64,000 nt of DNA from Bacteroidota bacterium (lineage in GTDB: Bacteria > Bacteroidota > Bacteroidia > Bacteroidales > FEN-979). The notes under the pieces are model-generated. The model was not told where the DNA came from. It did no database searches and worked only from the letters and a program-made list of their open reading frames with translations. The translations under genes were made by a program, and so were the position numbers. The stretch is taken from positions 4,505-68,504 of the forward strand of contig JAPLDH010000033.1 in NCBI GenBank assembly GCA_026391355.1, given 5' to 3'. Positions 5,379 to 59,032 of the stretch are shown in pieces (the stretch's first letter is position 1; every line of letters begins with the position of its first letter).

Positions 5379-6437
5379 ATGAAAATTGTTACCATTATTG
5401 GTGCACGTCCTCAATTCATTAAAGCTGCAACCGTTTCCCGCCAATTCCGGGGAGTCCCTGATATCCATGAAATACTTGTTCATACAGGCCAGCATTATGA
5501 TGAGAATATGTCGGAAGTCTTCTTTCGTGAACTCGAAATTCCCCTGCCCGATTTCAATCTTGGGGTTGGTTCAGGAACACACGCTTATCAAACCGGCATG
5601 ATGATGATTAAAATCGAGGAGGTCCTCTTACGCGAAAAACCCGACTTTACGTTGGTTTACGGAGATACAAACTCAACCATTGCCGGTAGTCTCTCATCCG
5701 TAAAACTTCACATCCCGGTTGCCCACGTGGAAGCCGGTTTGAGAAGCTTCAACCGTTCAATGCCTGAAGAGATCAACCGCATTGTGACCGACCGTATCTC
5801 TGACCTTTTGTTCGCACCAACCACGACAGCTATTAAAAACCTTGAAAATGAAGGGCTCGCAGGTAATGCTTGTTTTACAGGCGATGTTATGTATGATTCC
5901 GTTCTTTATTACGCTGCCTCCATCCGCAGCAACCCTGAAAAATTCAATACTAAAGGAATACCCGGCCTGTATCTGCTGGCTACCATTCACCGGGCAGAAA
6001 ATACCGACAATCCTGAAAATATTCTCAATATTCTTGAAGCATTTTCCAGAATAGATTATCCGGTGATCTTTCCTGTTCATCCACGTACCCGGAAAGTGAT
6101 CTCTTCGATTGCTGATATCCCCTCAAATGTACATGTCATTAATCCGGTCGGGTATCTGGAAATGCTGAAATTAACAATGAACGCGCATAAAGTGATTACC
6201 GATTCCGGTGGATTACAAAAAGAAGCTTATTTTCTTGGAAAACAGTGCATTACCATTCGCAATGAGACAGAATGGGTGGAAACCCTGCATGATCATTGGA
6301 ATATCCTTACAGGTACCCTGCCCGGGAAGATATTGGAGGCAATTCATAGCAACATTCCGATATCCCCCCGCAAAACAGAGTTTGGTAATGGAAAAGCTGG
6401 TGCGGTGATCCTTGAAAAACTGCATGGAAGAGTATAA
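5379..6437 (+). CDS. wecB: UDP-N-acetylglucosamine 2-epimerase family, non-hydrolysing; WbpI-like subtype
   Basis: GARPQFIKAA, HTGQHYD, VYGDTNST, HVEAGLRS, TIHRAENTD and DSGGLQKEA motifs. Confidence 0.9.
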   Translation: MKIVTIIGARPQFIKAATVSRQFRGVPDIHEILVHTGQHYDENMSEVFFRELEIPLPDFNLGVGSGTHAYQTGMMMIKIEEVLLREKPDFTLVYGDTNSTIAGSLSSVKLHIPVAHVEAGLRSFNRSMPEEINRIVTDRISDLLFAPTTTAIKNLENEGLAGNACFTGDVMYDSVLYYAASIRSNPEKFNTKGIPGLYLLATIHRAENTDNPENILNILEAFSRIDYPVIFPVHPRTRKVISSIADIPSNVHVINPVGYLEMLKLTMNAHKVITDSGGLQKEAYFLGKQCITIRNETEWVETLHDHWNILTGTLPGKILEAIHSNIPISPRKTEFGNGKAGAVILEKLHGRV

Positions 6438-6517
6438 ATCTTTTTAACATTCCTTCTTGTCTATTGTAAATTTCCTTGCATACCTGCGGGTTTAACCAAA
6501 ATTTTATACTTAATATC

Positions 6518-6548
6518 TTGCATTTTAAAAATAAAAAGAGTAATTTTG
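6518..6548 (+). promoter_or_regulatory. Promoter of the upxY glycan operon
   Basis: TTG 6518-6520, 20 nt spacer, TAATTTTG 6541-6548. Confidence 0.75.
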
Positions 6549-6554
6549 TTACTC
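6538..6554. promoter_or_regulatory. Palindromic candidate operator overlapping the -7 box
   Basis: GAGTAA-TTTTG-TTACTC, perfect 6-bp inverted repeat. Confidence 0.55.
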
Positions 6555-6580
6555 AATTATGGAAACCTGTTAATTGACCT

Positions 6581-7090
6581 ATGGATGATCCGGCGAAATG
6601 GTATGCTGTTTATACCAAATCACGAAATGAGAAAAAGCTTACAGGGCGCCTGAATGAGAAGGGAATTGAAGCCTATGTTCCGTTGCGAAAAACGTTGAAA
6701 CAATGGTCTGATCGTAAAAAATTTGTCGAAGAACCCCTCATCAGTTCTTATGTTTTCGTGAATATTCAATCTTCCCGTTACTATGATGTTTTAAATACCC
6801 AGGGAGCGGTCAGGTATATTTGGTTCAATGGAAAGCCTGCATCCATTCCTGATTCCCAGATCCAGCTATTGAAGATCCTGGCAACATCCGGTTATGATGT
6901 GGAATGCACTTCAAACAGTCTTCCAAAAGGAAGTCATGTCCGCGTTACCAGTGGTCCCCTGAAAGGTCTGACCGGGGAATTGGTCAATTTTGCCGGAAAT
7001 AACAAAGTTATCCTTCGTCTTGATACACTCGATAAAGTGTTGGTGCTGACTATCTCACCATACTTCCTCGAATCGATAGCGGAAAATTAG
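6581..7090 (+). CDS. upxY: UpxY-family transcription antiterminator (NusG/RfaH paralogue)
   Basis: WYAVYTKSRNEKK, WSDRKK, PLISSYVFV NGN domain; KOW motif VRVTSGPLKGLTG; first gene of a glycan locus. Confidence 0.92.
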   Translation: MDDPAKWYAVYTKSRNEKKLTGRLNEKGIEAYVPLRKTLKQWSDRKKFVEEPLISSYVFVNIQSSRYYDVLNTQGAVRYIWFNGKPASIPDSQIQLLKILATSGYDVECTSNSLPKGSHVRVTSGPLKGLTGELVNFAGNNKVILRLDTLDKVLVLTISPYFLESIAEN

Positions 7091-7165
7091 ATTTCCGGAA
7101 TAATATTCTTTTCTTCGGCTATGTCCTGTTTTTATAAAATGGGACTGAAAGGGCGAAGCTGTACT

Positions 7166-7729
7166 ATGCTCAATACCTTAATCACCAGCAAAACCCGCAT
7201 CAAGCTGCTGCTCCGGTTCTTCCTGAACAGCGATTCGACTTCCTATTTGCGAAATCTGGAGAGTGAATTTGCCGAATCCACCAATGCAATCCGGGTTGAA
7301 CTCAATCGTTTTGAGAAAGCAGGATTGCTGATTACATCCCTGAAAGGAAACAGGAAAATCTTCCAGGCCAATCAGAATCATCCTCTCTATTCCGATATTC
7401 ACAATATCCTTGTTAAATATGTTGGTCTTGACCAGATCATCGACAAAGTGGTTCAATTACTGGGTGGAGTTGAAAAAGCATATATTACAGGTGATCTTGC
7501 CCTGGGGTTGGATGTAAATAGCATTTCCCTTCTGTTGATCGGTGATGACATCAATCGCCAATATCTTGCCAAACTGATTAAAAAAGCTGAAATACTGATC
7601 AATAAGAAGATCACATGTGTGATCCTTCCAGCTCCTGAGGAAAAGGATTACCTGAAGAAGTATCCTGAAGCATTGTTGATCTGGCTGTCAAATCATGAAA
7701 TAAGCTTAAAAGAATCCATTGAAAAGTAA
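7166..7729 (+). CDS. ArsR-like winged-helix regulator with a C-terminal nucleotidyltransferase-like fold
   Basis: LITSKTRIKLL...YLRNLESEF.ESTNAIRVELNRFEKAGLL wHTH; C-terminal AYITGDLALG...ISLLLIG. Confidence 0.8.
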   Translation: MLNTLITSKTRIKLLLRFFLNSDSTSYLRNLESEFAESTNAIRVELNRFEKAGLLITSLKGNRKIFQANQNHPLYSDIHNILVKYVGLDQIIDKVVQLLGGVEKAYITGDLALGLDVNSISLLLIGDDINRQYLAKLIKKAEILINKKITCVILPAPEEKDYLKKYPEALLIWLSNHEISLKESIEK

Positions 7730-7745
7730 AATCACAAGTCCTCAC

Positions 7746-8267
7746 ATGATTGCGTATAAAACTGACATTGCCCTTGGAACAGCAAAAGTACTTGGATTCA
7801 ATTTAACGAATAATTTCAGACATCCTTTCTTCTCAACATCGGTAAAGGATTTCTGTCAACGGTGGCACATTACTCTTTCATTTTGGCTGCGTGATTATCT
7901 TTTCCTGCCTTGGGCTTATTTCCTGTCTAAAAATCTTAAAAAAGAATCTTATTTCAACATAAAGACAGAACAGATCATCTATTCCGCAGCAATTTTTATA
8001 ACGTTTTTTATTTGTGGTGTCTGGCATGGAAAAGAACCTACCTTCATGTTATGGGGCATTTCGTTTGCTATTCTGCTCATCTGGGCACGGCTTATGGATA
8101 AACCCTTCAGGAAATTCAGGTTTTGGACAGGAATTTCTAAAAATTCAGGTCTTTACAAAACATTTAAGATCCTTCTTACATTCATCCTTATTTCACTGAT
8201 AATGGTTTTCTTCCGGAGTGAGAGCGTGAATGATGCATTTTATATCATCCGGAAGGCACAAAAATAA
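7746..8267 (+). pseudogene. 5'-truncated MBOAT (AlgI/DltB-like) O-acyltransferase
   Basis: Only the C-terminal half is present: TDIALG, NF.HPF, FCQRWHITLS, GVWHG. About 180 aa, whereas intact members are roughly 450-500 aa. Confidence 0.7.
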
Positions 8268-11856: not shown

Positions 11857-13347
11857 ATGGGGCAGTTAAAAACTATAAAAAGCTACTCAAAAGACACAGT
11901 TGTTTACGGACTGGGGTTTGGTCTTCAAAAATTTGTCGGGTTTCTCCTGTTACCGTTATATACCCGTGCATTAAACCCCAGTGACTATGGAATCATCGAT
12001 ACCATCACTGCCGGTTTGCTACTTTTTACGATCATTATTCAGGCTGGTTTAACCAATGCCTCGTCACTCTATTTCTACAAGGCCGGATCGGAGGAAGAAA
12101 AAGGCAAGCTTCTGTTTACACTCTTGGTTCTCCGCCTTTTATCGGTTATTCCTTCACTCATAATCAGCATATTTTCAAGACAGATCTCCATATCCCTGTT
12201 TGATACTGACAAGTACACCTGGATGGTTTTTATTTCCTGTATGCTCATTCCCATTTCGCTCCTCAATGACGAACAGATATGGATCTTCCGGTTTTACAGG
12301 AAACCCTGGCGATACAACCTGGGGACGGTAATTAAAACGGTCGGAAATGTTTTCTGGGGACTTTTACTGGTGGTTTTTCTGCGGCAGGGAGTATGGGGAG
12401 TTCAGATGGCTACATTTCTCAGCAGTTTCATGGTCATTATTTATACATTTTTTTCTTTTTCAAGGAAAAGGTATGTTTATAAATTCAGCAAGTACTGGGC
12501 GAAGACCCTCCTTAAATTTGGCGCTCCTTTCATTTTATCCCTGGCAGTCTCATGGGTCTTCTCCTCCGCCGACCGGTATTTTCTGCTCCATTACCAGAAT
12601 ACAACAGAGATTGGCCTTTATTCAATTGGGTACACCTTCGCACGCCCGATGCAGTTGATCAACATGGCTTTTGGAATGAGCTTCCTCCCCTTCTTCATGT
12701 CGTTATGGGAAAAAGAAAGCGATACAGATAAAACTGCAACAAAGAAAGCGGCAAAGGGTATCTGGTACATGTACCTGGTGCTGACCTGTGTACTTGGGTT
12801 ATTTCTTTCGATCTTCATCGCACAGATCCTTCCCTTTGTCACCACCCCGCAGTATATAATGGGCGCAGCTGCAGTACCGCTTCTTATTTTTTCGGGTATT
12901 GTACGTCAAAGTACAGATATGAATAGCCCTGGCATAGGTCTGCGGGAAAAACCTTTGCATTATGTGTGGATGACCATCGTCGTGTCTATTGTAAGCCTTG
13001 GTATGAACTTCTTGCTGATTCCCAGAATAAGCTTCCTTGGTGCTTCCATCAGTAACCTTGTTTCGAACATCGTTTATTTTATCCTCGCGGTTACCGTTTC
13101 ACAGCATTATTTTAAATATGACCTGCAGATCTTCCGCGCTGGGTTCTATTTCCTGGTAAATTTCGCCCTTGCAGCCGTATTCCCGATTGCTGAGTTGAAA
13201 TTCAACATTCATTTCCCGATACTTCTCAAGGTAAGTGTCTATTTTATCGGTCTTCTACTTCCCTTTATTTTTGGTGTCATAAAAATTTCAGATTTAAGGT
13301 TAATAATTACTGCAATTAAAAACAGAAAAAATGAGATCCCCGCATAA
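11857..13347 (+). CDS. wzx: Wzx oligosaccharide flippase
   Basis: Many TM segments; LLPLYTRAL.PSDYG, DRYFL, EIGLYS. Confidence 0.9.
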   Translation: MGQLKTIKSYSKDTVVYGLGFGLQKFVGFLLLPLYTRALNPSDYGIIDTITAGLLLFTIIIQAGLTNASSLYFYKAGSEEEKGKLLFTLLVLRLLSVIPSLIISIFSRQISISLFDTDKYTWMVFISCMLIPISLLNDEQIWIFRFYRKPWRYNLGTVIKTVGNVFWGLLLVVFLRQGVWGVQMATFLSSFMVIIYTFFSFSRKRYVYKFSKYWAKTLLKFGAPFILSLAVSWVFSSADRYFLLHYQNTTEIGLYSIGYTFARPMQLINMAFGMSFLPFFMSLWEKESDTDKTATKKAAKGIWYMYLVLTCVLGLFLSIFIAQILPFVTTPQYIMGAAAVPLLIFSGIVRQSTDMNSPGIGLREKPLHYVWMTIVVSIVSLGMNFLLIPRISFLGASISNLVSNIVYFILAVTVSQHYFKYDLQIFRAGFYFLVNFALAAVFPIAELKFNIHFPILLKVSVYFIGLLLPFIFGVIKISDLRLIITAIKNRKNEIPA

Positions 13348-14689: not shown

Positions 14690-15355
14690 ATGTCAACTAT
14701 TTTACGAGATGCAACTACTGATCTTCAAAAGAATGATCAACCTGAAACAGTATTAACAAGAGATATTTTCCGGTTTAAATATGTCTCAAAGTTATTTATC
14801 AAGGGAAACTTGTTAGATGTGGGATGTAGGACAGGAGTCTTAAGTAGTTACCTTGACAAGAGTATAGAATATTGTGGTTGTGATATGTTTGAACAATATC
14901 AAAAATTCGTTAAGAATTTTTATTTATTCAATATTGAGGCTGGTCCATGGCCTATTAAAGATAATTCTTTTGACAATATTCATATTGGCGAGGTATTGGA
15001 ACATGTTTCGAATTTCTTTTTTGTTTTTGAAGAGATGTCCCGTATTCTGAAACCTGGAGGACGTATAATATTAACAGTTCCAAATAATTTTGGACTTATT
15101 CAATCCATTAAAATAATAAATTTTAAAAATTATCAAAGAAGGATGTTGGATATTAAACTAGTTGAAAATGCAGGTACACATATTCATTGCTTCTATGAGG
15201 CTGATTTATTAAAGATAAGTCAATTGCTGAATTTAAAACCAATCATTTGTGACAGAATTTATATCAACATCAGAGGAATAAAGCTTCCTGAATGGTATAT
15301 ATTTAAACCTTTTGCAACTTTTATTTCTTATGGGATGGAAAAATATAAACAATAG
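14690..15355 (+). CDS. Class I SAM-dependent methyltransferase
   Basis: LLDVGC, EVLEHV, RILKPGG...VPN. Confidence 0.88.
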   Translation: MSTILRDATTDLQKNDQPETVLTRDIFRFKYVSKLFIKGNLLDVGCRTGVLSSYLDKSIEYCGCDMFEQYQKFVKNFYLFNIEAGPWPIKDNSFDNIHIGEVLEHVSNFFFVFEEMSRILKPGGRIILTVPNNFGLIQSIKIINFKNYQRRMLDIKLVENAGTHIHCFYEADLLKISQLLNLKPIICDRIYINIRGIKLPEWYIFKPFATFISYGMEKYKQ

Positions 15356-15361
15356 TGCTGA

Positions 15362-16540
15362 ATGATTAAGGTAATCTACATAGAATATCATGCTAAAAAT
15401 GACGGGTATTTTCCACCAATGGAAATGTACCCCAATTTTTTTACTTACGGTTTTGCAGGTTTCCTGGGAAGACAGTTCAAACGTTTTTATCCTGATTCTG
15501 ATGTAGAGGTATGGAGGTTGGATTCTACCATAGATGAATATATGGAAGCATGGGTAGAGAATGTATGGTTCAGAATCTTTCCCGCTTTTGGAAATGGTCA
15601 TACCGGTCTTTATTCCCGGGCATTCACAAAGCGATTGAGAGCACTACCACCCAAAACAATCCTCAATGTTCAATGGATCCACCATCCTCTTCTCTACTCT
15701 GTATTATTGCTTGCTCCAAGGAACCTGATTATAACCGCGTTTCATCATGGAGACTGGTCTCCCTATTTTGCCTGTAATTACCTGAAAGGATTAAGAAGAA
15801 TAAAACGCTTTTGTTATATCATAGTTGAACATTTACTTATTAACCGGACGGATTTCTTCTTTCTCCTTGACAAACGTGATATTCCATGGCTGAAACGAAC
15901 CTACCGCAACCTTGAAGGACATTACACGATCCAGCCTACCGGAATTGATTTTAATAAATATAAGGGAATTCCTCGTGACCAGGCAAGGAAAGAGCTGGGT
16001 CTTGAAACCGATAAAAAATACATGTTCTATCTCGGACAGTATTATAATTACAAGGAGGTTGACCGGTTATGCGAGATCTATAAAAAAGTAAGGGAGAAAG
16101 ATCCGGATGTCAGGTTAATGGTTGCAGGAGGCTCTCCAAAAGACATGTATTATGAGAACATCGTGGAATGCGGCGCCATAGATTTCGGACGTCGATTGCA
16201 AACCGATCTCTTTAAATTCTATTCTGCCGCTGATGTTTATGTGATGGTTGCCTTTCGTGACGACATGTTTGGCGGGATCGGGCAGGCTCCCCTTGAAGCA
16301 CTCGCCTGCGGAACTCCGGTAGTCTCCAATTCGATCCGCAATATGCCCGATGAGATCATTGACTCAGTAGGAAAATGCCCCGGAAATGAAGAAGAAATGA
16401 TAGAGGATATTCTTTATGTAATAAACCACCGGGAAAGATTTATCAATTGTAACAAGATAACAAAGGCAGTTTTTGATGTTTCTGTTCTCCAGGAAAAAAT
16501 GTTCGGTATATATACAAACCTGTTAACAGAAAGATCATGA
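15362..16540 (+). CDS. Glycosyltransferase family 4
   Basis: YSAADVYV, EALACGTPVV. Confidence 0.88.
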   Translation: MIKVIYIEYHAKNDGYFPPMEMYPNFFTYGFAGFLGRQFKRFYPDSDVEVWRLDSTIDEYMEAWVENVWFRIFPAFGNGHTGLYSRAFTKRLRALPPKTILNVQWIHHPLLYSVLLLAPRNLIITAFHHGDWSPYFACNYLKGLRRIKRFCYIIVEHLLINRTDFFFLLDKRDIPWLKRTYRNLEGHYTIQPTGIDFNKYKGIPRDQARKELGLETDKKYMFYLGQYYNYKEVDRLCEIYKKVREKDPDVRLMVAGGSPKDMYYENIVECGAIDFGRRLQTDLFKFYSAADVYVMVAFRDDMFGGIGQAPLEALACGTPVVSNSIRNMPDEIIDSVGKCPGNEEEMIEDILYVINHRERFINCNKITKAVFDVSVLQEKMFGIYTNLLTERS

Positions 16541-16971
16541 TCCGGATCTGTCAGCTCACAAAACTGGAACTGGATCGGATGCTTCCACTATTCCTCGAAC
16601 AAACCCGTGGTTTTGAATATAATAACTGGACCAGAGAGAATTTTCTTTCCGACCTGCCTGATAAATGGCTTTTGAGTATTTTCGCAGAATCAGACCGAAA
16701 GACTGCCGGATTTTCAATAAACTCCCATAAAGAGGATGCTTTGCATATACATTATTTCTTTGTATTTAAAGAATACAGAAAGCTATTTCTCGGAAACAAA
16801 ATGCTGGATCATTGCGTTAAAATTGCTAAAGAGAACGATCTTTCCCGACTCACTTTAAAATGTAATTTTGAAAATTATAAAGCAGTTAACTTTTACTTCA
16901 GGAATGGCTTTCATATCGAAGACATGATCCCGGATAAAAAGTTATATCTCATGGTCAGGAATATAGGATAA
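16537..16971 (+). CDS. Small GNAT N-acetyltransferase
   Basis: V.KEYRKLFLG and N.KAVNFY.RNGF; ATGA overlap with the upstream GT. Confidence 0.82.
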   Translation: MIRICQLTKLELDRMLPLFLEQTRGFEYNNWTRENFLSDLPDKWLLSIFAESDRKTAGFSINSHKEDALHIHYFFVFKEYRKLFLGNKMLDHCVKIAKENDLSRLTLKCNFENYKAVNFYFRNGFHIEDMIPDKKLYLMVRNIG

Positions 16972-38437: not shown

Positions 38438-39475
38438 ATGAACGTAAGTTTTCCCCTTATTGACATTTCTTCTCTTGACAGGTATCGATGGTCTGAATTT
38501 ATTATGAATCAACCGGAAGGTTCTGTTTTTCAATCCCCTGAGTTTTATCACCATCTTTTAAATGTTCCCAACTATCAACCTGCCGGGATTGCCTGCACCG
38601 ATGAGAATAATAATATTGCCGGGATTCTGTTGGGCTTTATCATCAGAGAACGACAAGGGATTATTGGAAGTTTCTATGCCAGGGCCATTGTTCATGCAGG
38701 TCCCCTTATTGCATATGATCAACCCGATAAACTTACAATTTGCGATATTCTCCTGAAAGGTTTTATAGCATTGGTTAAAAAGAAATCGCTTGTAATTCAG
38801 CTCCGCAATCATTTTAATCTGTCAGATTTCAGAGAAATCTTTAAAAAAAATGGATTTCTCTTCCAGGAACATCTTAATTTATTCATTAATATCAGGCAAA
38901 CATACTTACCCCTTCAAACAATAAGTAAAAGGAAACTTCAACAGATAAGAAAAAGCCTTGCCAATGGTGCTGTAATTTCTGAAGCATCCACACCTGGTGA
39001 AGTAGATGATCTATATTCCATTCTCCATCATCTTTATAAACATCGCGTAAAAAAGCCACTTCCCGGAAAAGGGTTTTTTCGGGCATTTTTACAATCATCT
39101 GCTGAACAAAAATTAGGGGTCATTTTACTTGTCAAATACCAGGGAAAGGTGGTAGCCGGGATGGTCTGTCCTATTACCCCCGGAAAAGTAATATATGAAT
39201 GGTATGTATGTGGGCTGGACAGGGAATATAAGTCAATCCACCCTAGTGTTTTGGTAACCTGGGCTGGAATTGAATACGCCAGAACAAATAATATTCCTAT
39301 ATTTGATTTCATGGGGATGGGAAACCCCGGAAAAGCCTACGGAGTAAGAGATTTTAAAATGGGTTTCGGCGGAACCATTGTTAAATATGGACGTTTTCTC
39401 CGGATTAATAACCAGGGATTGTACACTGTTGCGAAACTTGGGTTAAAAATCCTTGCTTCTTTAAAACGTGTTTAA
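38438..39475 (+). CDS. FemAB-like GNAT (putative aminoacyl transferase)
   Basis: VFQSPEF, GPL, FDFMGMG...YGVRDFKMGFGG. Confidence 0.85.
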   Translation: MNVSFPLIDISSLDRYRWSEFIMNQPEGSVFQSPEFYHHLLNVPNYQPAGIACTDENNNIAGILLGFIIRERQGIIGSFYARAIVHAGPLIAYDQPDKLTICDILLKGFIALVKKKSLVIQLRNHFNLSDFREIFKKNGFLFQEHLNLFINIRQTYLPLQTISKRKLQQIRKSLANGAVISEASTPGEVDDLYSILHHLYKHRVKKPLPGKGFFRAFLQSSAEQKLGVILLVKYQGKVVAGMVCPITPGKVIYEWYVCGLDREYKSIHPSVLVTWAGIEYARTNNIPIFDFMGMGNPGKAYGVRDFKMGFGGTIVKYGRFLRINNQGLYTVAKLGLKILASLKRV

Positions 39476-39491
39476 TTTGAGAATAGAAATA

Positions 39492-41030
39492 ATGAGAAAG
39501 TTTATTTTCGGTTTTTTTACCAATTCATTACTCATTGCTGTTTGCTATTATTTTTTCAATTGGTTAAAATGGGGAACCTTAATTCTTCCGCTTAGTATCA
39601 ACCTGACCTTTGTTCTTTTCTTTTTTGTCTGGCTGGTCGTTGCTCTGTTAACGAAAAAATATGTCATCACAAATAAAGAATTAAAGATTGAAATACTCTC
39701 AACAATTGCCTTAAGTGACCTGATTGAATTGATTGTTTTTGGAATTCTGATAAAATATTTACGACATTTTGAAAATATAAGGTTCGTTATTCTTTATACA
39801 CTTTTGTTGACTTCGATAGTTGAATTAATACTGGGGTATTCATTTGCATATTTTAAGAAAACAACCGTCCGGCAACCCTTTTATGAAGAACATGCAAATG
39901 GATTTACTGCAAAGAGTCCTGTTGTTGAACCCCCGGTGTATAAAAGAAAGAAGAGCCCGGTGCCGGATGAATTCTATCACTATCCCGGACCAATCGATTT
40001 ACACCAAATCATTATTGAAGAAACAAATGAAAATACGTTCAATTTCGTAAAAGATTATTTTACCAACCCTCATGATACCCTCGTTTTATCGACAACCACA
40101 GTTTTTAATATTTATAATCAACCCCGGGAGAAATTTAAGGTAATTATCAATCTTAAGAGAATCAATGATATTCAGTATATCAATAAATTCTTTGAAGCAA
40201 TCAATACAAAGCTGGATAATACAGGGATATTTATTGATTGGGTGGAGACCTATTCACTGAAGAAAAAAAGGATACTGGCGGAGTATGTCGTAGGCCTGAA
40301 CTATCTTGTTTATGCTTTTGACGTTATCTTTCACAGGATTTTCCCAAAGCTGCCGGTCACAAAAAAAATCTATTTTTTCCTTACCAAAGGCCGGAACAGG
40401 GTTTTATCAAAAGCTGAAACGTTTGGCCGTTTATATTCATGCGGTTTTGAAATTATTGAAGATCTGTTTATTGATAACCGTCTCTTCTTTGTAGTTCGCA
40501 AGATCAAAGAACCGGCATTTGATAAAAATCCAACTTACGGCCCCTTGATAAGACTGAAACGTATTGGTAAGAATGGAAAGATCATCGGGGTTTATAAGTT
40601 GCGGACAATGCATGCCTATTCGGAATATCTCCAGGGTTATATTCATACCAAGAATGATCTGCAGGAAGGAGGAAAATTCAAGAATGATTTCCGTATTACA
40701 ACACTTGGAAGGATCTTCAGAAAACTATGGATCGATGAACTCCCGATGCTGATAAATTTAATAAAAGGAGATCTGAAATTTGTCGGTGTTCGACCTTTAA
40801 GTCAACATTATTTTAACCTGTATTCAGAAGAATTACAGGAACGCCGGCTTAAATACAAACCCGGACTTATCCCTCCTTTTTATGCTGACCTTCCAAAAAC
40901 CCTCGATGAAATTATGAAGTCGGAAATCAGATACCTTGATTCTTATGATAAGTCGCCAATATTTACCGATATTTCCTATTTTTTCAAGGCATGGTATAAT
41001 ATAATTTTTAAAAGAGCCAGAAGCAATTAA
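39492..41030 (+). CDS. Initiating polyprenyl-phosphate phosphoglycosyltransferase (bacterial sugar transferase) with N-terminal TMs
   Basis: RIGKNGK...YKLRTM, D.RIT..G, RK..IDELP, GDLKFVGVRP, KPGL. Confidence 0.88.
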   Translation: MRKFIFGFFTNSLLIAVCYYFFNWLKWGTLILPLSINLTFVLFFFVWLVVALLTKKYVITNKELKIEILSTIALSDLIELIVFGILIKYLRHFENIRFVILYTLLLTSIVELILGYSFAYFKKTTVRQPFYEEHANGFTAKSPVVEPPVYKRKKSPVPDEFYHYPGPIDLHQIIIEETNENTFNFVKDYFTNPHDTLVLSTTTVFNIYNQPREKFKVIINLKRINDIQYINKFFEAINTKLDNTGIFIDWVETYSLKKKRILAEYVVGLNYLVYAFDVIFHRIFPKLPVTKKIYFFLTKGRNRVLSKAETFGRLYSCGFEIIEDLFIDNRLFFVVRKIKEPAFDKNPTYGPLIRLKRIGKNGKIIGVYKLRTMHAYSEYLQGYIHTKNDLQEGGKFKNDFRITTLGRIFRKLWIDELPMLINLIKGDLKFVGVRPLSQHYFNLYSEELQERRLKYKPGLIPPFYADLPKTLDEIMKSEIRYLDSYDKSPIFTDISYFFKAWYNIIFKRARSN

Positions 41031-51393: not shown

Positions 51394-52149
51394 TTAGATT
51401 CGCTCCAATGTGGATAGAGGAAGCCAGCCAACACTACCATTCGCAATCCTTATTTCGTACCAGATACCGATCTGGTCGATCAACTGCACTTTGGTTCCTT
51501 CATGAAGGACAAACAGGTCAATGCTTTTATCGTCGGGAGAGCTTTTAATTGTTACGGTAGGAGTAAAAATGATCGCCTCATCCTGACTTTGGATTACCTG
51601 ATAATTTTGGTAAGCAAACAGAAAAGAAAAAAATGACAATACAAAAAGAGTAATCCCTAACCAGAATCCTGTCTTTCTGATAAACAAAACTCTTGAAATA
51701 AAATAGAAAGCAGCACACACGAGCGACAAAATGAAAATCCCTACACCAACCTTTGCCCAAACATCTGCTGAGCATTGGGTGACTAGTGAATGGTACCATC
51801 GTTTATAGAACAATTCCGGAATTGGCTCAATTTTGTCGGCAATTTTTCCATTTGCAACTTTCAGATTGAAAGTGTAATCAGGATTCCCTGGATCATGCTT
51901 TATTGCTTTTTCATAATAGAGTATGGCTGAAGTAAAATCATTCATCTTATAGCTGGTGTTGCCGATATTATAATATAGATCGGCTGATTCATACCCGCTC
52001 TTCAGCACCTGTTTATATAAGTCAAGTGCATTGTTGTATAATCCATCCGCGTAAGCTTTATTTGCCTGAGAAATAATAGCCTGATTATCAATAGCAAAAA
52101 TAAATGTACAAAAAAACAACAATCCGGATATCAATACCACTCTTTTCAT
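51394..52149 (-). CDS. batE: BatE (TPR + TM + SH3)
   Basis: LYYNIGN TPR, LHEGTKV SH3; operon position. Confidence 0.9.
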   Translation of the reverse strand: MKRVVLISGLLFFCTFIFAIDNQAIISQANKAYADGLYNNALDLYKQVLKSGYESADLYYNIGNTSYKMNDFTSAILYYEKAIKHDPGNPDYTFNLKVANGKIADKIEPIPELFYKRWYHSLVTQCSADVWAKVGVGIFILSLVCAAFYFISRVLFIRKTGFWLGITLFVLSFFSFLFAYQNYQVIQSQDEAIIFTPTVTIKSSPDDKSIDLFVLHEGTKVQLIDQIGIWYEIRIANGSVGWLPLSTLERI

Positions 52150-52238
52150 ATTTCCATTTTCATTTCATAGAAGGCAAATTTATTCCACAGGCTATTAAAG
52201 GATCTCCAATCTTGTTATCTTCCTGGAAATTTTGAAAA

Positions 52239-54113
52239 TTACCTGAGTTCTCTTTCACTTTTAGTAATTACATCCAATGCTTCATTATAAATTTTATCCA
52301 TGATGATGGATTTTTCTCCAGGAGCAAACCTGGCAAACTCAGTATTATTAAGCGTTTCAATGAATTGCCTGGTAATTTCTTCATTGACATTCCTGGATGA
52401 CAACGCCTGGGACACAGAATCCATGGACAGTTCAGAAAGCGGAATACTGAATTTATCACTCAGATAGCCCCAAACAGCCTGTGAAATTTCCTCGTAGAAC
52501 TCCTGTTCCCTGTTTGCTTTAAGTGAATTTTGCGCTTTTTTTAACCGTTTCCTGGCAACCTTTGTGGCCTTCCTGTTTTTCATAAGCAGCAAATCACTCC
52601 GTTTTTCAGTTTGCTTCCTCCAGATGATGATCAGCGTCATAAACAGCAACACCGGAATCAGCAATGACAGGTAGAAAACCAGAGAGCCAAAATAATAAAC
52701 ACCGATTTTAGTCAACCGGATCGATTGATTTTTAATAAAACGGATATCACTGCCAATGTATTTAATTTCCTCCTTCCCTTGCCCGGAATAAGTGACAGTT
52801 TGGGATTCTCCGGTTCCTTTTTCAACGTCAAAGACATATTCCGGACTGGTAAGGGTTATATACTTTTTCCTGTTCAGATCAAAATAGGAGAAACTGATCG
52901 GTTTGATCTTAAATTTCCCTGGTTTTCTGGGCACAACAAGGTATTCAAAAGTCTGGCTCCCGGTTATACCAGATGAAGTGGTTTTAATATCGCTTGAGAC
53001 CTTAGGATCATATGCATCAAAATCCGGAGGGAAACCAACATTCATCTTATCGACAAGTTGGATATTGCCTTCCCCTGAAACCACGCATTTCAGGTTGATG
53101 GGGTCATTGGTCTTGAGATGGGTTTTATCCACTTCTGTTCTAAAAGTAAAACTTCCAACGGCTCCGCTGAAATCTGCCGGTTTATCATTGCCTGGTAAAG
53201 GCCGGACATTGATTACCACCGGGTTTGATTTAAGGTTTTTCTCAACCGATGCAACTGAATTGTTGAAAAAAGGATCGTTGAAAAAGTCATCAAAGAAAGG
53301 ATCACCTGATCGCTGTCGTGATTGCTTTTTAAGCTGGGCAATACATTCAACCTCAAGTGGATCAATAACAAGTCTGCCACTCTTAAGCGGGAAAAGGACG
53401 ATCTTGCGGATATCGGCAACTACATATGGTTGTCCGTCAATTGTTTGATTATACTGATTGAATTTCTCGTTTTCCTTGGAAAGGTTCTGAGACCAAAATC
53501 CGGGGAAAGAGGAGATTTTGTTAATGGTAATCTGCTGGATAGGAACTTTTGTGAATAGTTTATAGGTTACTATTATTCCTTCTCCCTGAATTGGATTGGC
53601 CTCGCTGACCAATGCTTTCAGATATACATCATTTGAACCCATCTGGACAGCGCCTCCCTGATTCTGTGAAGAACCTCCACCGGTATTGTTTCTTTGGGGA
53701 GATGAAGGATTTTGCCCGTAAGTCGATCCTTTAACGACTTTAATGCTAATTGGATTCGAATGAAATACTTTGTTATTCACAGAAATGGCAGCAGCAGGAA
53801 TGGTAAAACTACCCTCCTTAACTGCCTGAAGAATAAATGTATATGAATTAGAAACCGTCATGGAGGTGCGCCCGTTGATCATTCGGATGTTAGAGGAAGT
53901 AGAGGAATTGGGACCGGAAATAATACTAAAATTACTCAGATTAGGCCCTTTGAAATTTAAACCCTGTGCATTGACAGAATAAATTAAGCTAAAGCTCTCC
54001 CCTATTGCAACCTCTTGTTTTGCAGAGCCGGTAAATTCGATATCCTGTGCGATTACCGCTCTGATTGACAGATAGATCAATGCAACAATGATGTTAACAA
54101 TTTTCCACGACAT
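52239..54113 (-). CDS. batD: BatD
   Basis: Ig-like Bat repeats, DPFFDDFF, FSGAVG, FARFAP. Confidence 0.9.
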   Translation of the reverse strand: MSWKIVNIIVALIYLSIRAVIAQDIEFTGSAKQEVAIGESFSLIYSVNAQGLNFKGPNLSNFSIISGPNSSTSSNIRMINGRTSMTVSNSYTFILQAVKEGSFTIPAAAISVNNKVFHSNPISIKVVKGSTYGQNPSSPQRNNTGGGSSQNQGGAVQMGSNDVYLKALVSEANPIQGEGIIVTYKLFTKVPIQQITINKISSFPGFWSQNLSKENEKFNQYNQTIDGQPYVVADIRKIVLFPLKSGRLVIDPLEVECIAQLKKQSRQRSGDPFFDDFFNDPFFNNSVASVEKNLKSNPVVINVRPLPGNDKPADFSGAVGSFTFRTEVDKTHLKTNDPINLKCVVSGEGNIQLVDKMNVGFPPDFDAYDPKVSSDIKTTSSGITGSQTFEYLVVPRKPGKFKIKPISFSYFDLNRKKYITLTSPEYVFDVEKGTGESQTVTYSGQGKEEIKYIGSDIRFIKNQSIRLTKIGVYYFGSLVFYLSLLIPVLLFMTLIIIWRKQTEKRSDLLLMKNRKATKVARKRLKKAQNSLKANREQEFYEEISQAVWGYLSDKFSIPLSELSMDSVSQALSSRNVNEEITRQFIETLNNTEFARFAPGEKSIIMDKIYNEALDVITKSERELR

Positions 54114-54213
54114 ACGATCAGTTCCTATTATTTCTTTCCAGTGTCATACGACCTTGTTTATATTATCATTATTCCCTTCATTCATGCTTCTATAGTCCGT
54201 GAAGGCATATTTA

Positions 54214-54954
54214 TTACCAGTCTTTCTCTATTACAATCTGGCTGGAGGTGTGTTTTTCCTTATTCAGCTTGGCAAGTGTCTTCTTCTCATTATTTTTCAG
54301 GGCTTCCAGCATCCTGTCAGCATCTTCTTTACTGATTTTCTTATTCTGGTCCTGCTGATTTTTATTCTGGGCCTGCTCCTTGTTTTGCTGCTCCTTGTTC
54401 TGATCTTTTTTATCTTTCTTATCCTGATTATCCTGATTTTTTTTATTTTTCTCGTTCTGTTGCTGCTGTTCCTTCTGTTTCCTTAACATCTGCCGCGCAT
54501 ATTCGAGATTATACTTAGTATCCTTATCAGAGGGATTCTTCAATAAAGAATTTTCATAAGCTTCAACACTTTTTTCATATTGTTTTGATTCAAGAAATGT
54601 GTTGCCCAGATTATGCAGTGCATTGGACTGAATCTTTTTATCCGGATTTGATTCTGCCAGTGAACCAAAAATACGGGAGGATTCATCCCAGTTTTGCTGT
54701 TTATATAATGATGTGCCCAGGTTAAACTGACCTTTATATGAATCCTTTTTCAATTCAATCGCTTTTCTATAATCCAATTCTGCTTCCTTATATTTACCCT
54801 GGTCATACTTTTGATTACCCTGCCGCAGCAGGTGATATTCTTTCTGGGCAACAGAGGATGAAGTGAAAACCATCAAAATTGAGCATGTCATGATTGTGAA
54901 ATGGAATCTGAACGTGCGCTGAAGGAACTGAAGAAACCTGTATTCTGCCGTCAT
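54214..54954 (-). CDS. batC: BatC (TPR + Q/N/K/D-rich tail)
   Basis: TPRs, DTKYNL, low-complexity tail, C-terminal EKDW; start uncertain (54954 or 54891). Confidence 0.88.
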   Translation of the reverse strand: MTAEYRFLQFLQRTFRFHFTIMTCSILMVFTSSSVAQKEYHLLRQGNQKYDQGKYKEAELDYRKAIELKKDSYKGQFNLGTSLYKQQNWDESSRIFGSLAESNPDKKIQSNALHNLGNTFLESKQYEKSVEAYENSLLKNPSDKDTKYNLEYARQMLRKQKEQQQQNEKNKKNQDNQDKKDKKDQNKEQQNKEQAQNKNQQDQNKKISKEDADRMLEALKNNEKKTLAKLNKEKHTSSQIVIEKDW

Positions 54955-54984
54955 TAATTTATTTATTATAATTACATATATCAA

Positions 54985-56022
54985 TCAGATAATTTCTTTT
55001 TCAAATGGCTTGAACTTACTAAACCATTGATTTTTGCGATCATACACAAACAGTTCAAAGATAAGAAAAATAAGGCTGAACGCAATAAAGTACTGAAAAC
55101 GATCTTCGTAATCAGAAAATTGCTTGGTCTCAATCTCCACTTTCTGGATTTTATTAATATCATCAAATATCTTTTCAAGCCCTGTAGATGAATTATTTGC
55201 CCTTACGTATATGCCTTTTCCGACGGAAGCAATTTGTTGCAGGATAGTTTCATCCAGTTTACTTATTATTGTAGTACCATCCCTGTCTTTTTTAAACCCC
55301 GTTTGGACATCACCATTGTACACGGGTATCGGTGCGCCTTCCGGAAGTCCCATTCCAATGGTGTATGTTACAATTCCGGTTTTGCCGGAAGCTTCAACCT
55401 GTTCCAGAACTCCACCCTGGTGATCTTCTCCATCGGTAATGATCACGATGGCTTTACTCCGGTTACTCTGGCCAAAAGTCCCCATAGCTTTTTCAATTGC
55501 GTCGGAGATTGCGGTTCCCTGAACCGGGACACTGTTGGTATTGACAGTTGCGAGCATCAATTTGGCAGCCGTATAATCGCTGGTAATGGGGAGTTGGATA
55601 TATGCTTTCCCTGCAAAGAGGATCATTCCGATGCGGTCTCCTTCCAAACGGTCGATCAACCTGGAAATATCCTGTTTTGCTCTCTCCAGTCTGCTGGGTT
55701 TAATATCCATGGCAAGCATACTATTTGAAACATCAAGGGCAAATACCAGGTCTATTCCTTTACGATGTACTTTTTCCAGTTTGGATCCTGTTTGAGGTTC
55801 AGCCATGGCAATGACGATGAAAGCATATGCAATCATCAGAAGGATGAACTTGAACACCGGCTTTCCTGTCGAATAATCAGGCATCAGCTGTTGGAAAACC
55901 GTTCGTTCTCCAAAAGCTGCAAGTTTCCTTTTTCTCCAGATGAGAAACAAAACCAGCATCGTTACCAGAACCGGAATGAGCAGCAAAAGGTAGAAATAAT
56001 ATATATGTGCAAACCTGAACAT
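54985..56022 (-). CDS. batB: BatB (vWA domain)
   Basis: DVSNSM MIDAS, LPITSDY, TDGEDH. Confidence 0.93.
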   Translation of the reverse strand: MFRFAHIYYFYLLLLIPVLVTMLVLFLIWRKRKLAAFGERTVFQQLMPDYSTGKPVFKFILLMIAYAFIVIAMAEPQTGSKLEKVHRKGIDLVFALDVSNSMLAMDIKPSRLERAKQDISRLIDRLEGDRIGMILFAGKAYIQLPITSDYTAAKLMLATVNTNSVPVQGTAISDAIEKAMGTFGQSNRSKAIVIITDGEDHQGGVLEQVEASGKTGIVTYTIGMGLPEGAPIPVYNGDVQTGFKKDRDGTTIISKLDETILQQIASVGKGIYVRANNSSTGLEKIFDDINKIQKVEIETKQFSDYEDRFQYFIAFSLIFLIFELFVYDRKNQWFSKFKPFEKEII

Positions 56023-56065
56023 GAAGTGAGATCAAATTGTCAATAAATGAATGATTAAAATCGTT

Positions 56066-57061
56066 TTATGGTATATTTCTGAAAACCGTATTCCGCAAAA
56101 TTATTTCAATAGAGATCAGAAACATCGCTATTATACAAAGTATCAGATACTCCTCCTTCTTTCGTTTGAAAACAGTGACATCGATTTTGGATTTTTCCAT
56201 CTTATCGATTTTCTGATAAATTTCCCGTAATGTAGCATTGTTTGTTGCCCTGAAATAAAGGCCATCCGTTAATCCGGCTACCTGTTTCAACAGGGGTTCA
56301 TCAATTTTCACCGGGATACTTTGATATTGTATCCCAAACGGAGTCTGAACAGGATAAGGAGCCATTCCATTTGTCCCGACGCCCACCGTATAAATACGAA
56401 TTCCATATAGTTTGGCGATTTCTGCTGCAGACACCGGATCGAGCGAACCCATATTACTCTCCCCATCCGTCAACAGTATGATCACTTTACTCACGGCCTT
56501 ACTGCCGCGCAAATGGTTGACTGCCGTCGCCAATCCGTCGCCGATGGCAGTTCCATCCTGGATCATTCCCATCCTGACATCTTTAAAAAGGTTTTTCAGA
56601 ACGGCATGGTCTGTTGTCAATGGACATTGTGTAAAGGCTTCGGCACTGAAAACTACCAGCCCTATCCGGTCGTTGGGTCGCCCGTTAATAAAGTCGATGG
56701 CCACATTCTTGGCTGCTTCGATCCGGTTGGGTTTGAAATCTTCCGAAAGCATACTACCTGAAATATCCACTGTAAGCATAATGTCAATTCCCTCAACTGA
56801 AACATCCTGCCTGCTCATACTGGACTGAGGACGTGCAAGAACAATGACCAGCAGCAGAATTGCCAGCATCCTTACTACATATAATCCATGGTAAAGAATT
56901 AACCGGATACTTCTTCCACTTCCTTCGAATCCTTCAACAGTTGAAAATAAAATAGTGGCATTATTCTTTTTCAACCTGAAAAAGTACCATGTTACCAATA
57001 GCGGTATGATCAGCAACAGGTACAGATAATTTGGTTGAGCAAATGTGATTCCCTTAAACAT
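56066..57061 (-). CDS. batA: BatA (vWA domain)
   Basis: LARPQ, DISGSM, PLTTDH, GTAIGDG, LTDG. Confidence 0.93.
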   Translation of the reverse strand: MFKGITFAQPNYLYLLLIIPLLVTWYFFRLKKNNATILFSTVEGFEGSGRSIRLILYHGLYVVRMLAILLLVIVLARPQSSMSRQDVSVEGIDIMLTVDISGSMLSEDFKPNRIEAAKNVAIDFINGRPNDRIGLVVFSAEAFTQCPLTTDHAVLKNLFKDVRMGMIQDGTAIGDGLATAVNHLRGSKAVSKVIILLTDGESNMGSLDPVSAAEIAKLYGIRIYTVGVGTNGMAPYPVQTPFGIQYQSIPVKIDEPLLKQVAGLTDGLYFRATNNATLREIYQKIDKMEKSKIDVTVFKRKKEEYLILCIIAMFLISIEIILRNTVFRNIP

Positions 57062-57062
57062 A

Positions 57063-58049
57063 TTATATTTTTTCAGTCACCTGTTCCGGTTTTTCGGCCA
57101 GTTCAGGTTGCAGTAAAGGTTGCATAATTGTTTCATGCACGAAGGCAACGGCGTCATCCAGACTTCCTTCGTGCTCAGAAGGCAATGGTAATGCTTTGGC
57201 GAATTTTACAAGATCTGCAAGTATAAACATCTGATTCAACTTTCCTTTGGATGATTTCTGAATTTCATGATGCTGGTTGATCAAATCCAAAATCTCATCG
57301 CTGGTCATTTCCATTGCCATGATTTCAAAACGGTCGTGAATATAGATCCTTATAATTTCCGTCAATTCGGTATAGTAATCTTTAATCTTACCGGCCTGCC
57401 AAAGTTTTTTGATCCTCAGTTTTTCAAGTTCTGCCAGGGCTACTTCATGTGGTAACAGCCGGATTTTGGGCCTGATCTGGAAAATTGGTTCCGATTTACG
57501 TCGTTTCTTAATGTAGAATACAATGAACCAGATGATAAGTATGGCAATGATGCCTGCCAATATATATGGCAATAACTCCCGGAAAGAGATCGGAACTTTA
57601 ATGGGGCCCTTTATTGGTTTGAATGCCTGAGTTGTATCGACCCGAATCGTATGTACATTCAGGAAAAAGCCCTCCGTTTGCATGGGGATTTTTGTTGTAT
57701 CCGGAAGGTTCTGCACATAAAACCTTACAGGTGGAAAACTGTAATATCCTGAATCGAAGGTGGTAAGAAGATAACTTCTGTTGAGACTTGTGATCTTTTT
57801 GTCAGGTGAATAAACAGTATCGGTTTTCGTTCGGTTAAGAATACGGATATGCCCCATAATCGTATCACCAATGACTGGCCATATTACGGCTGATTTTGCC
57901 GGAACGGTGATGGCCAGATGCATCTTTACCTGATCTCCGATAAGCATTGCATTGGTATCCAATTTAACGGAGGCCTTCATTTCCTGTCCCAGGCAAATCT
58001 GAGAAAGGAGCGTCAAAACTATAAAAAAGACAATAACAATTTTTTTCAT
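57063..58049 (-). CDS. Conserved Bat-operon membrane protein (BatD-like N-terminus)
   Basis: Signal peptide, TFDSG, single TM, EMTSDE, ADLVKFAK; lies between DUF58 and batA. Confidence 0.8.
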   Translation of the reverse strand: MKKIVIVFFIVLTLLSQICLGQEMKASVKLDTNAMLIGDQVKMHLAITVPAKSAVIWPVIGDTIMGHIRILNRTKTDTVYSPDKKITSLNRSYLLTTFDSGYYSFPPVRFYVQNLPDTTKIPMQTEGFFLNVHTIRVDTTQAFKPIKGPIKVPISFRELLPYILAGIIAILIIWFIVFYIKKRRKSEPIFQIRPKIRLLPHEVALAELEKLRIKKLWQAGKIKDYYTELTEIIRIYIHDRFEIMAMEMTSDEILDLINQHHEIQKSSKGKLNQMFILADLVKFAKALPLPSEHEGSLDDAVAFVHETIMQPLLQPELAEKPEQVTEKI

Positions 58050-58058
58050 CGGGTCCGG

Positions 58059-58934
58059 TTACCTTCTTGCTTCCCTTCGTTTAAAAAGATTTATCAAGGG
58101 TTTTACATAATCCTGATCAGTCCTGATCTTTACAAAATCGACTCCACTGCGGATAAATACATCCGTCAGATATTTATTATGATTATTGTACCAATTCTGA
58201 TACCCAAGCCTGATCTTCCGGCTGGTCGTGTCAATCCATTGTGTGCGTCCGGTTTCCGCATTTTTTACTTGAATCAGGCCCACATTGGGGATCTCTGTTT
58301 CACGGGGGTCATAGATTTCCACTGCGATAAGATCATGCTTTTTGTTTGCAATTTTAATTGCATCCTCAAATCCCTTATCAAGGAAATCAGAAAGGATAAA
58401 AGTGGTACACCTCTTTTTAATGACATTGGTTAGATACCTGAGTACCTCTGATATTTTAGTTTCCTTGTTATCTGGCTTAAAATCAATTAGTTCTCTAATA
58501 ATGCGGAGAATATGGGAAGTCCCCTTTTTGGGAGGGATGAACTTCTCAATTTTATTACTGAAGAAGATAACCCCCACTTTATCATTGTTTTGAATAGCGC
58601 TAAAAGCCAAAACGGCTGCAATTTCAGTGATCATCTCTTCTTTGAGTGCTTTAACAGTACCGAAATGGTTGGATCCGCTCACATCGATCAGGAGCATGAC
58701 TGTTAATTCCCGCTCTTCATCGAAAACTTTGATGTATGGATGATTGAACCTTGCCGTTACATTCCAGTCGATGTTCCTGATATCATCTCCAAACTGATAC
58801 TCCCTTACCTCACTGAAAGCCATGCCTCTACCTTTGAAAACACTGTGGTATTGCCCTGAAAAAATGTGATGGGACAAACCACGGCTTTTAATCTCAATCT
58901 TCCTGACTTTCTTAAGCAGATCAGCAGTTTCCAT
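58059..58934 (-). CDS. DUF58 family protein
   Basis: FKGRGMAFSEVREY, DIRNIDWNVTAR, EREL, DVSGS, SDF. Confidence 0.93.
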   Translation of the reverse strand: METADLLKKVRKIEIKSRGLSHHIFSGQYHSVFKGRGMAFSEVREYQFGDDIRNIDWNVTARFNHPYIKVFDEERELTVMLLIDVSGSNHFGTVKALKEEMITEIAAVLAFSAIQNNDKVGVIFFSNKIEKFIPPKKGTSHILRIIRELIDFKPDNKETKISEVLRYLTNVIKKRCTTFILSDFLDKGFEDAIKIANKKHDLIAVEIYDPRETEIPNVGLIQVKNAETGRTQWIDTTSRKIRLGYQNWYNNHNKYLTDVFIRSGVDFVKIRTDQDYVKPLINLFKRREARR

Positions 58935-58996
58935 TTTAATATACATTAAGGAACAGGAGGTTTTTTTTTATTTTATTTCTTCCTGTTAATTTAACT

Positions 58997-59028: not shown

Positions 59029-59032
59029 AACA

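Follow-up and report, generated by a model that had tools for sequence, protein, structure and literature searches.

The 64,000-nt stretch of Bacteroidales DNA analysed here (contig JAPLDH010000033.1, assembly GCA_026391355.1), hereafter the window, carries a polysaccharide locus that is headed by a palindromic promoter, the antiterminator gene upxY and a gene for a small putative regulator. The promoter shows a −33-like TTG (6518-6520, + strand), with the TA of the −7 box 20 nt downstream. The −7 box TAATTTTG (6541-6548, + strand) falls within the spacer of a palindrome composed of GAGTAA (6538-6543), TTTTG (6544-6548) and TTACTC (6549-6554). An earlier note, made from the letters of this DNA, had described such a GAGTAA-N5-TTACTC palindrome enclosing the −7 box, and it is present at 6538-6554 as described. 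The predicted operator was assigned a 21-bp footprint (6536-6556, without strand), with the core GAGTA-N7-TACTC at 6538-6554. For comparison, the Bacteroidetes promoter consensus is TAnnTTTG at −7 and TTTG at −33 in the available part of PMC7366714.

Downstream of the promoter, upxY (6581-7090, + strand) encodes a NusG-like antiterminator of 169 amino acids, which matched NF033644 at 159.3 bits (cut-off 100) as well as the Pfam models NusG and KOW, and which is the only UpxY above the cut-off in its own genome. It is followed by a predicted pause hairpin of 10 pairs with a 3-nt loop (7123-7145, + strand; ViennaRNA fold of 7091-7170) and by an ops-like site, GGGCGAAGC (7151-7159, + strand), with the core GCGAAGC at 7153-7159, 7 nt before the ATG of the regulator. 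The regulator gene (7166-7729, + strand) encodes 187 amino acids, predicted to form an ArsR/SmtB-like winged helix (residues 1-90) and a catalytically dead domain like that of minimal nucleotidyltransferases (MNT; residues 79-176). The open reading frame (ORF) as listed runs from 7121, and the start was set at ATG 7166, where the N-terminus of the family aligns. The gene is single-copy in its own genome.

The surroundings of the promoter were searched for signs of inversion. No member of a recombinase family was found among the 61 ORFs of at least 110 amino acids in the window, and no long inverted repeats flanked the promoter, the matches being imperfect and 12-21 nt long; the absence of both, as read before from the sequence, is upheld. 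The chance occurrence of the palindrome was estimated from 5000 shuffles of the 143-nt spacer (27% GC). A 6-bp inverted repeat with a spacer of 0-12 nt appeared in 54% of the shuffles and one with a spacer of 5 in 8%, and 7 of the 66 TAnnTTTG motifs of the window were enclosed by a comparable 6-bp inverted repeat. The palindrome alone is not beyond chance, and its significance rests on conservation. In the 4.83-Mb genome, the exact 6-N5-6 pattern occurred once. The loose pattern GAGTA-N7-TACTC gave 4 sites versus 5 for a control pattern, which is background level, and is informative only beside the regulator or with the flanks. The 3 other loose matches are all internal to ORFs and come without the flanks, so the regulator appears, on this pattern search, to be dedicated to this one promoter in its own genome.

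Conservation of the palindrome upstream of regulator homologues

Loci with homologues of the regulator were collected in two ways. Fifty-eight loci were retrieved through the protein alone, and 29 more were taken from an independent, evenly drawn sample of the phylum, giving a total of 87. The exact core GAGTA-N7-TACTC was found upstream of the homologue in 46 of the 58 loci retrieved by protein; among the remaining 12, eight had the site with one mismatch, two with two mismatches, one lacked upstream DNA and one lacked the site. The independent sample gave 24 exact sites and 4 with one mismatch, leaving 1 of the 29 loci without a site. Counted within 1.5 kb upstream of the homologue, a site was present in 82 of the 87 other loci (69 exact, 13 with one mismatch). 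The 69 exact sites fell in 125,749 bp of upstream zones, versus 1 exact site in 395,056 bp elsewhere in the same loci. Comparison across these loci indicates that the palindrome is real and conserved across the phylum.

The extended consensus was TTGAGTAA-N5-TTACTCAA, with T at the two flanking positions before the core in 78% and 85% of sites and A after it in 80% and 76%. The window operator has AA as its left flank, where the family consensus has TT. The half-sites were nearly invariant, as was the recognition region of the protein, ES[TS]NAIRVELNRFEKAG. In one locus (L010) both arms were changed symmetrically, to GGGTA...TACCC, and the protein carried R29K; this is a single case and was not used as evidence.

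The orientation of the embedded promoter was then compared among 71 exact sites. Read towards the regulator gene, the spacer was rich in T at 57 of 71 sites versus 9, and it contained TTTG in 24 sites and CAAA in 0. A TTG lay 18-21 nt upstream of the −7 TA at 30/71 sites versus 4/71 in the reverse-orientation control. The asymmetry of the embedded promoter points at the regulator. The end of the palindrome was no more than 30 nt before the regulator ATG in 43 of the 71 sites, typically 3-6 nt. Given the position of the embedded promoter, transcription would start at or after the right arm, and we infer that the regulator mRNA is nearly leaderless in most loci. According to the available part of PMC7366714, 5′ untranslated regions of <10 nt make up about 3.7% in B. 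thetaiotaomicron, so a near-leaderless mRNA would be unusual.

Association of the site with the regulator gene

The position of upxY was compared across the 87 loci. In 47 loci, upxY lay no more than 1.5 kb away on the same strand; it was absent from 38 and further off in 2 more. The regulator was the second gene, directly after upxY, in the window and in 10 other loci. The earlier note had placed the regulator in the position of UpxZ; this position appears incidental, because upxY lies downstream of the regulator in 37 of the 47 loci and upstream of it in 10. Among the arrangements with upxY first, the palindrome preceded upxY in the window and in L001-L004, and in L075, L156 and L159 it followed upxY and preceded the regulator.

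A further comparison was made with 16 UpxY loci of close relatives, taking up to 400 nt upstream and allowing one mismatch. The palindrome was present upstream of upxY in 7/7 relatives with the regulator nearby. The regulator was adjacent in five of them; in G002 the two genes were split over contig ends and are probably adjacent, and in G007 the regulator was on another contig and the site had one mismatch. The palindrome was absent from 9/9 upxY loci without an adjacent regulator (within 175 nt only for G004). In G001, a genome of the same genus, the regulator was 6 kb from upxY and had kept its own palindrome.

The strict motif TGAGTAA-N5-TTACTCA and the regulator family were also counted across the same 401 genomes of the phylum. 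The strict motif was found in 13 of 51 regulator-positive versus 10 of 349 regulator-negative genomes (Fisher p 2e-7), and a control pattern was found in 8 of 401. Ten of 13 strict-motif sites were within 40 nt upstream of the regulator. A gene-order tree gave at least 12 changes of order, a figure that is indicative only, the tree being quick and poorly supported. These comparisons show that, where gene order differs, the site stays with the regulator gene. The recurrence expected from the sequence alone was thus found: conservation of the palindrome upstream of homologues extends throughout the phylum, and the palindrome tracks the regulator gene, not upxY.

Some single sites were recorded along with these counts. 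The strict sites G172:C1:129563 and G224:C1:3189654 have A/T-rich spacers and are maybe remote targets. The G224 regulator had no site upstream (L167). Three identical strict palindromes were present in G191 (C5:172064, C7:175876 and C11:32), a genome in which the regulator family was not found; these copies may be a repeat element or orphan operators.

Fold and motif erosion of the regulator

The regulator was searched against Pfam and NCBIfam at E≤0.1, and no family match was obtained except a sub-threshold PaaX; HTH_5 and HTH_20 were not matched, and neither was UpxZ (PF06603), in agreement with the earlier view that the gene after upxY is not UpxZ-like. The family is large, with 5025 relatives at E≤0.001 among 5474 candidates of a word-indexed search and 2118 relatives among 50%-identity representatives in an exhaustive search. 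Its members mostly have 175-180 amino acids, and their only names are "ArsR family transcriptional regulator" or "predicted nucleotidyltransferase".

An AlphaFold model of the regulator, built on a 44-sequence alignment, had a pLDDT (predicted local distance difference test score) of 91.9. With VIA-align, residues 1-90 superposed on HlyU (5znx; Z 11.0, root-mean-square deviation 2.5, 81 aligned), and also on SqrR (Z 10.9) and SmtB (Z 9.9), with Foldseek in agreement. Residues 79-176 superposed on the MNT antitoxins 8xeo_B (Z 10.3, 95 aligned) and 8xeh_E (Z 10.2), and further on HI0073 (1no5_A, Z 9.8) and MntA (7bxo_A, Z 9.6). The family profile searched against PDB matched the nucleotidyltransferase 2rff at E 6.6e-6, and SmtB and ArsR chains at E 0.1-0.4 only. 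The combination of a winged helix with a minimal nucleotidyltransferase, recognised before from the letters, is therefore also that of the predicted structure.

The catalytic motif was assigned through the 2rff alignment, and conservation was counted over 187 full-length members. In the window protein, G109-D110 stands instead of GS, and S119 and S121 stand instead of DxD, confirming the erosion of the GS...DxD motif noted earlier. Across the family, S is kept at position 110 in 6%, position 119 holds I, E or T, and position 121 is D in 59% and E in 21%; the glycines G109, G114 and G126 are kept. The C-terminal domain is therefore, as judged from alignment and model, a dead nucleotidyltransferase. 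A HEPN family was not seen in the Pfam matches of 55 upstream, 54 downstream and 50 hold-out neighbours and of the 61 window ORFs (only matches at E≤1e-5 or 1e-8 were listed), so the proposal of a non-catalytic domain without a HEPN partner stands for the neighbours scanned.

The two halves of the protein differed in conservation. The winged-helix half was far better conserved, its ES[TS]NAIRVELNRFEKAG stretch being almost invariant, and the C-terminal domain was the less conserved half, with two glycines as its best-kept residues. The dead domain would most likely serve as a surface for dimerisation or for a partner, and a role as ligand binder is possible. The earlier note went further and had the dead domain sense a nucleotide or nucleoside diphosphate sugar (NDP-sugar), for which the conservation pattern gives no support. 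In its wider form, this proposal would make the MNT domain a sensor that keeps the ancestral cleft and binds a nucleotide, an NDP-sugar or a second messenger, or UpxY or RNA polymerase, the operator being released when precursors or envelope signals call for polymer; we regard it as doubtful.

Two observations concern related proteins. Clusters of look-alikes of ~185 amino acids in the ESM Atlas came from Actinomycetota (51% with NTP_transf_2) and Nitrospirota (19% with HTH_5), which suggests that the architecture of winged helix plus nucleotidyltransferase also occurs outside the Fibrobacterota-Chlorobiota-Bacteroidota (FCB) group, possibly with active enzymes. The regulator homologue of L073/L077 (G008:C18:84922-85315) is split into two fragments, covering residues 1-82 and 127-175, and may be a decaying copy; palindrome, upxY and ops-like site remain intact in that locus.

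The ops-like element and UpxY

In the available text of PMC11685472, UpxY is recruited by the non-template hairpin of GCGNAGC, the known UpxY sites are in the transcribed leader, and the leader element 5′-YGCGNAGCR is preceded by a pause hairpin. The core of the ops-like site in the window equals the B. fragilis opsE given there; its flanks are G...T, versus Y...R of the leader element, and the core is conserved. No other GCGNAGC occurs on the + strand in the 5-12 kb part of the window. Across the loci, GAC-N5-10-G[CG]GNAGC was found in 34 of 47 with adjacent upxY and in 13 of 40 without, at variable positions. The ops-like site persists in UpxY loci without the regulator (G032, G011), which argues that each cis element tracks its own trans factor, as far as comparison of these loci goes.

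Hairpins ending in GAC were predicted at the same place in most of 36 related elements, with modest support from single-sequence folds (mean z −0.98; 18/36 below −1). RNAalifold on the 36 elements recovered only a 3-pair GGC/GCC stem (GGC-GNA-GCC), and the upstream hairpins were out of register between subfamilies. UpxZ (PF06603) was not found in the 21 genomes searched, that is, its own genome and 20 relatives, and was matched in the B. thetaiotaomicron control. Each of the 21 genomes has one UpxY.

Proposed mechanism and alternative explanations

From the sequence comparisons and the predicted fold, we propose that the protein acts as a local autoregulated repressor with an operator overlapping the regulator/UpxY cassette promoter, and we give this reading a probability of about 0.72. 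The regulator would recognise TTGAGTAA-N5-TTACTCAA, presumably as a dimer. The window operator would span the −7 box and the predicted transcription start of a promoter that drives upxY, the regulator and, via UpxY loaded at 7151-7159, the roughly 35-kb operon. RNA polymerase would be blocked by the occupied operator, giving negative feedback on the whole cassette. In general form, the cassette would comprise a promoter with an overlapping operator, the genes for the repressor and UpxY in either order, and an ops site that loads UpxY for read-through. Since the order in the window is promoter, upxY, ops, regulator, the repressor would here be made from UpxY-modified transcripts and feed back on the promoter. 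The palindrome overlaps a sigma-A type −33/−7 promoter that points at the regulator, which fits the occluding repressor of the earlier note as far as sequence comparison can tell. By analogy, the dimeric ArsR/SmtB autorepressors obtained as fold matches (Z 10-11) would also count for repression.

Several findings weigh against an autoregulated repressor. No site was present within 1.5 kb in 5 of the 87 loci, and the gap between palindrome and ATG exceeded 30 nt in 28 of 71 sites. TTTG occurred in only 24/71 spacers and a −33 TTG at only 30/71 sites, and promoter occlusion may not apply family-wide. In the regulator-positive genomes G287, G172 and G224, strict sites were 50-190 kb from the gene. 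The regulator matched no Pfam HTH model at E≤0.1. In Saprospiraceae, the site lies in a gap of ~42 nt after a co-directional wza, where it could act on read-through transcripts or as RNA.

The last point bears on the first alternative, in which the palindrome is not a DNA operator and instead forms a leader RNA hairpin near the start codon that controls translation, processing or stability. We consider this unlikely. A stem of 5-8 bp is possible, the Saprospiraceae site is probably transcribed, and the 43 of 71 sites ending within 30 nt of the ATG are placed as such a hairpin would be. The double change GGGTA...TACCC in L010 keeps the pairing, but a symmetric change is equally expected for the operator of a dimer, and one-sided changes that break pairing were seen in L008, L021, L024 and L025. 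The arms are invariant across three phyla, without covariation beyond L010, so covariation cannot decide between a DNA site and an RNA hairpin. The strand-asymmetric −33/−7 promoter embedded in the palindrome would put the start at or after the right arm, and a search of 6300-7300 against Rfam at E≤1 gave only a chance snoRNA match.

The palindrome could also be bound by UpxY or a global factor, or be a feature of the promoter, and not be the site of the neighbouring regulator. Its place in front of upxY in the window and 10 other loci would agree with this, but we hold it to be quite unlikely: none of the 9 upxY loci that lacked a regulator next to upxY had the palindrome, two of them (G032, G011) still had the ops-like site, and in three loci the palindrome stood between upxY and the regulator. 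It was also present in loci without upxY, before genes for an ABC-2 exporter, an epimerase or a glycosyltransferase, and the rate of the motif in regulator-less genomes equalled the background. Moreover, the known UpxY sites in the available text of PMC11685472 are GCGNAGC elements in the transcribed leader.

Very unlikely, in our view, is a protein that acts mainly by protein contacts as UpxZ does, with the MNT domain binding UpxY or RNA polymerase and the palindrome setting only the expression of its own gene. In HEPN-MNT pairs, the MNT fold serves to bind the partner (structures 8xeh and 7bxo), 47 of 87 loci have upxY next to the regulator in the same orientation, and UpxZ was not found in the 21 genomes searched. 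On the other hand, upxY is lacking within 1.5 kb in 38 of 87 loci, a single UpxY per genome leaves no non-cognate UpxY to silence, and the regulator has no similarity to PF06603. The idea that the palindrome arose by chance in an A+T-rich spacer, as the comparable inverted repeat in 54% of spacer shuffles might suggest, has practically no probability left and is refuted by the conservation upstream of homologues (82/87 loci) and the background count (69 sites versus 1).

The interpretation of the earlier note was thus kept in part. The conserved palindrome, the dead MNT fold and the absence of UpxZ and invertase held, and the UpxZ position and the sensing of a ligand were not supported.

Neighbouring genes and distribution of the family

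The first frame after the regulator is a 5′-truncated MBOAT/DltB-like remnant (7719-8267, + strand), which overlaps the regulator stop. It matched only 193-308 of 337 positions of PF03062 and 238-376 of 380 of TIGR04091. The N-terminal part of the MBOAT protein was not found in any frame, and roughly 40% (the C-terminal part) remains. A paralogue with 46% identity is present on another contig (G000:C9, locus L087). About 35 co-directional polysaccharide biosynthesis genes follow (8292-42735, + strand; Pfam scans), including those for a flippase (11857-13344), an initiating sugar transferase (39468-41027), glycosyltransferases, epimerases and aminotransferases. This roughly 35-kb stretch is taken as one operon because of the common strand and the spacing. 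Inside it, four TAnnTTTG motifs within 6-bp inverted repeats cluster at 14787-16863. Past the polysaccharide locus, the minus strand carries a Bat/MoxR-type aerotolerance operon (51397-60025; BatA, BatD, VWA, DUF58, AAA_3 MoxR and TPR).

The neighbours in the other loci were polysaccharide genes throughout, namely Wza-type exporters, Wzz/Wzc, epimerases and UDP-glucose dehydrogenase. In loci without UpxY, ABC-2 (Wzm-like) permeases were found in 8 of 17, followed by epimerases, glycosyltransferases and Wza. Of the 401 genomes sampled from the phylum, 52 carried a member of the regulator family, with an uneven spread among taxonomic families, as did 15 of 41 relatives; members also occurred on contigs of Ignavibacteriota and Balneolota. 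In G001 (L062, 1040-1500), a small four-helix-bundle gene (23S rRNA IVS protein type) with inverted heptamer repeats on both sides separates the palindrome/ops from the regulator. PF05635 genes adjoin the regulator in L036 (554-919) and L012 (4881-5258).

Significance

Control of polysaccharide loci in gut Bacteroides rests on invertible promoters, UpxY and UpxZ, and to our knowledge nearly all that is understood of surface polysaccharide control in Bacteroidota comes from these organisms. The co-occurrence of site and gene at the heads of polysaccharide clusters in Bacteroidota points to an undescribed switch. It provides a candidate regulator-operator pair for many lineages with one UpxY, no UpxZ and no invertase, and the pair also covers ABC-type exporter loci without any UpxY. 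A likely role is thereby assigned to an unnamed family of >5000 proteins. In practical terms, the 21-bp motif marks the heads of polysaccharide operons in metagenomes, and the pair would be a compact repressor/operator part for the engineering of Bacteroidota. The protein would further illustrate how an enzyme fold of the toxin-antitoxin type can serve in a transcription factor without its catalytic activity. If the doubtful sensor role were true, the protein would be a phylum-wide, metabolite-gated master switch for capsule, exopolysaccharide and O-antigen loci, spanning Bacteroidota, Ignavibacteriota and Balneolota and replacing the promoter inversion and UpxZ cross-talk of gut Bacteroides.

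A literature search, with subscription journals and supplements outside its reach, gave no description of the family or site; within the same limits, no paper was found with the 17-mers or linking a winged-helix/nucleotidyltransferase protein to UpxY or capsule loci. Autoregulated ArsR-type repressors are a kind already known; the new features are the operator, the way in which the domains are combined and the connection with UpxY and polysaccharide loci.

Comparison with known systems

The closest likeness of the N-terminal half is to the autoregulated ArsR/SmtB repressors (HlyU, SqrR, BigR, CzrA and SmtB). The winged-helix fold of residues 1-90 is shared (Z 9.9-11.0), as are, according to the comparative genomics, an inverted repeat at the promoter of the regulator itself and a small single-copy gene. 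The regulator differs in lacking a Pfam HTH_5/HTH_20 match at E≤0.1, with an E of only 0.1 for SmtB in the profile search. Its C-terminus is a predicted dead MNT domain of 90 residues, whereas ArsR/SmtB proteins have a short dimerisation helix, and its predicted regulon consists of polysaccharide loci, in contrast to their metal, sulfide or virulence genes.

Residues 79-176 share the fold of the MNT antitoxins of HEPN-MNT modules (MntA, HI0073 and 2rff; Z 9.6-10.3). Unlike in those proteins, the serine of GS is found in 6% of members; of the two DxD positions, the first shows no conservation of Asp, and the second is D or E in 80% of members and Ser in the window protein. No HEPN partner was present among the neighbours scanned, and the domain is fused to a DNA-binding domain.

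AbiEi antitoxins likewise consist of a winged helix and a C-terminal domain; they autoregulate via inverted repeats and are paired with the nucleotidyltransferase AbiEii. The likeness lies in a winged helix tied to a nucleotidyltransferase system and in negative autoregulation at inverted repeats. Here, by contrast, an apparently dead nucleotidyltransferase fold is fused to the winged helix, a toxin partner is lacking, and the surrounding genes are those of polysaccharide loci.

The UpxY/UpxZ/opsX system of Bacteroides (Saba et al. 2024, PMC11685472, cited from the available part of its text) is similar in that a UpxY gene heads a long polysaccharide operon and that a GCGNAGC ops-like core follows a predicted hairpin. 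In contrast to that system, the present genomes have one UpxY, and UpxZ in 0/21; there is no invertible promoter in the window; the ops-like site lies after upxY; and a DNA-binding regulator with its own predicted operator, not mentioned in the part of PMC11685472 available, is added. Because the genomes have a single UpxY and no UpxZ, the proposed scheme stands as an alternative to the hierarchy of inversion and UpxZ in gut Bacteroides, in line with the proposal of the earlier note for this locus, where no invertase was found in the window.

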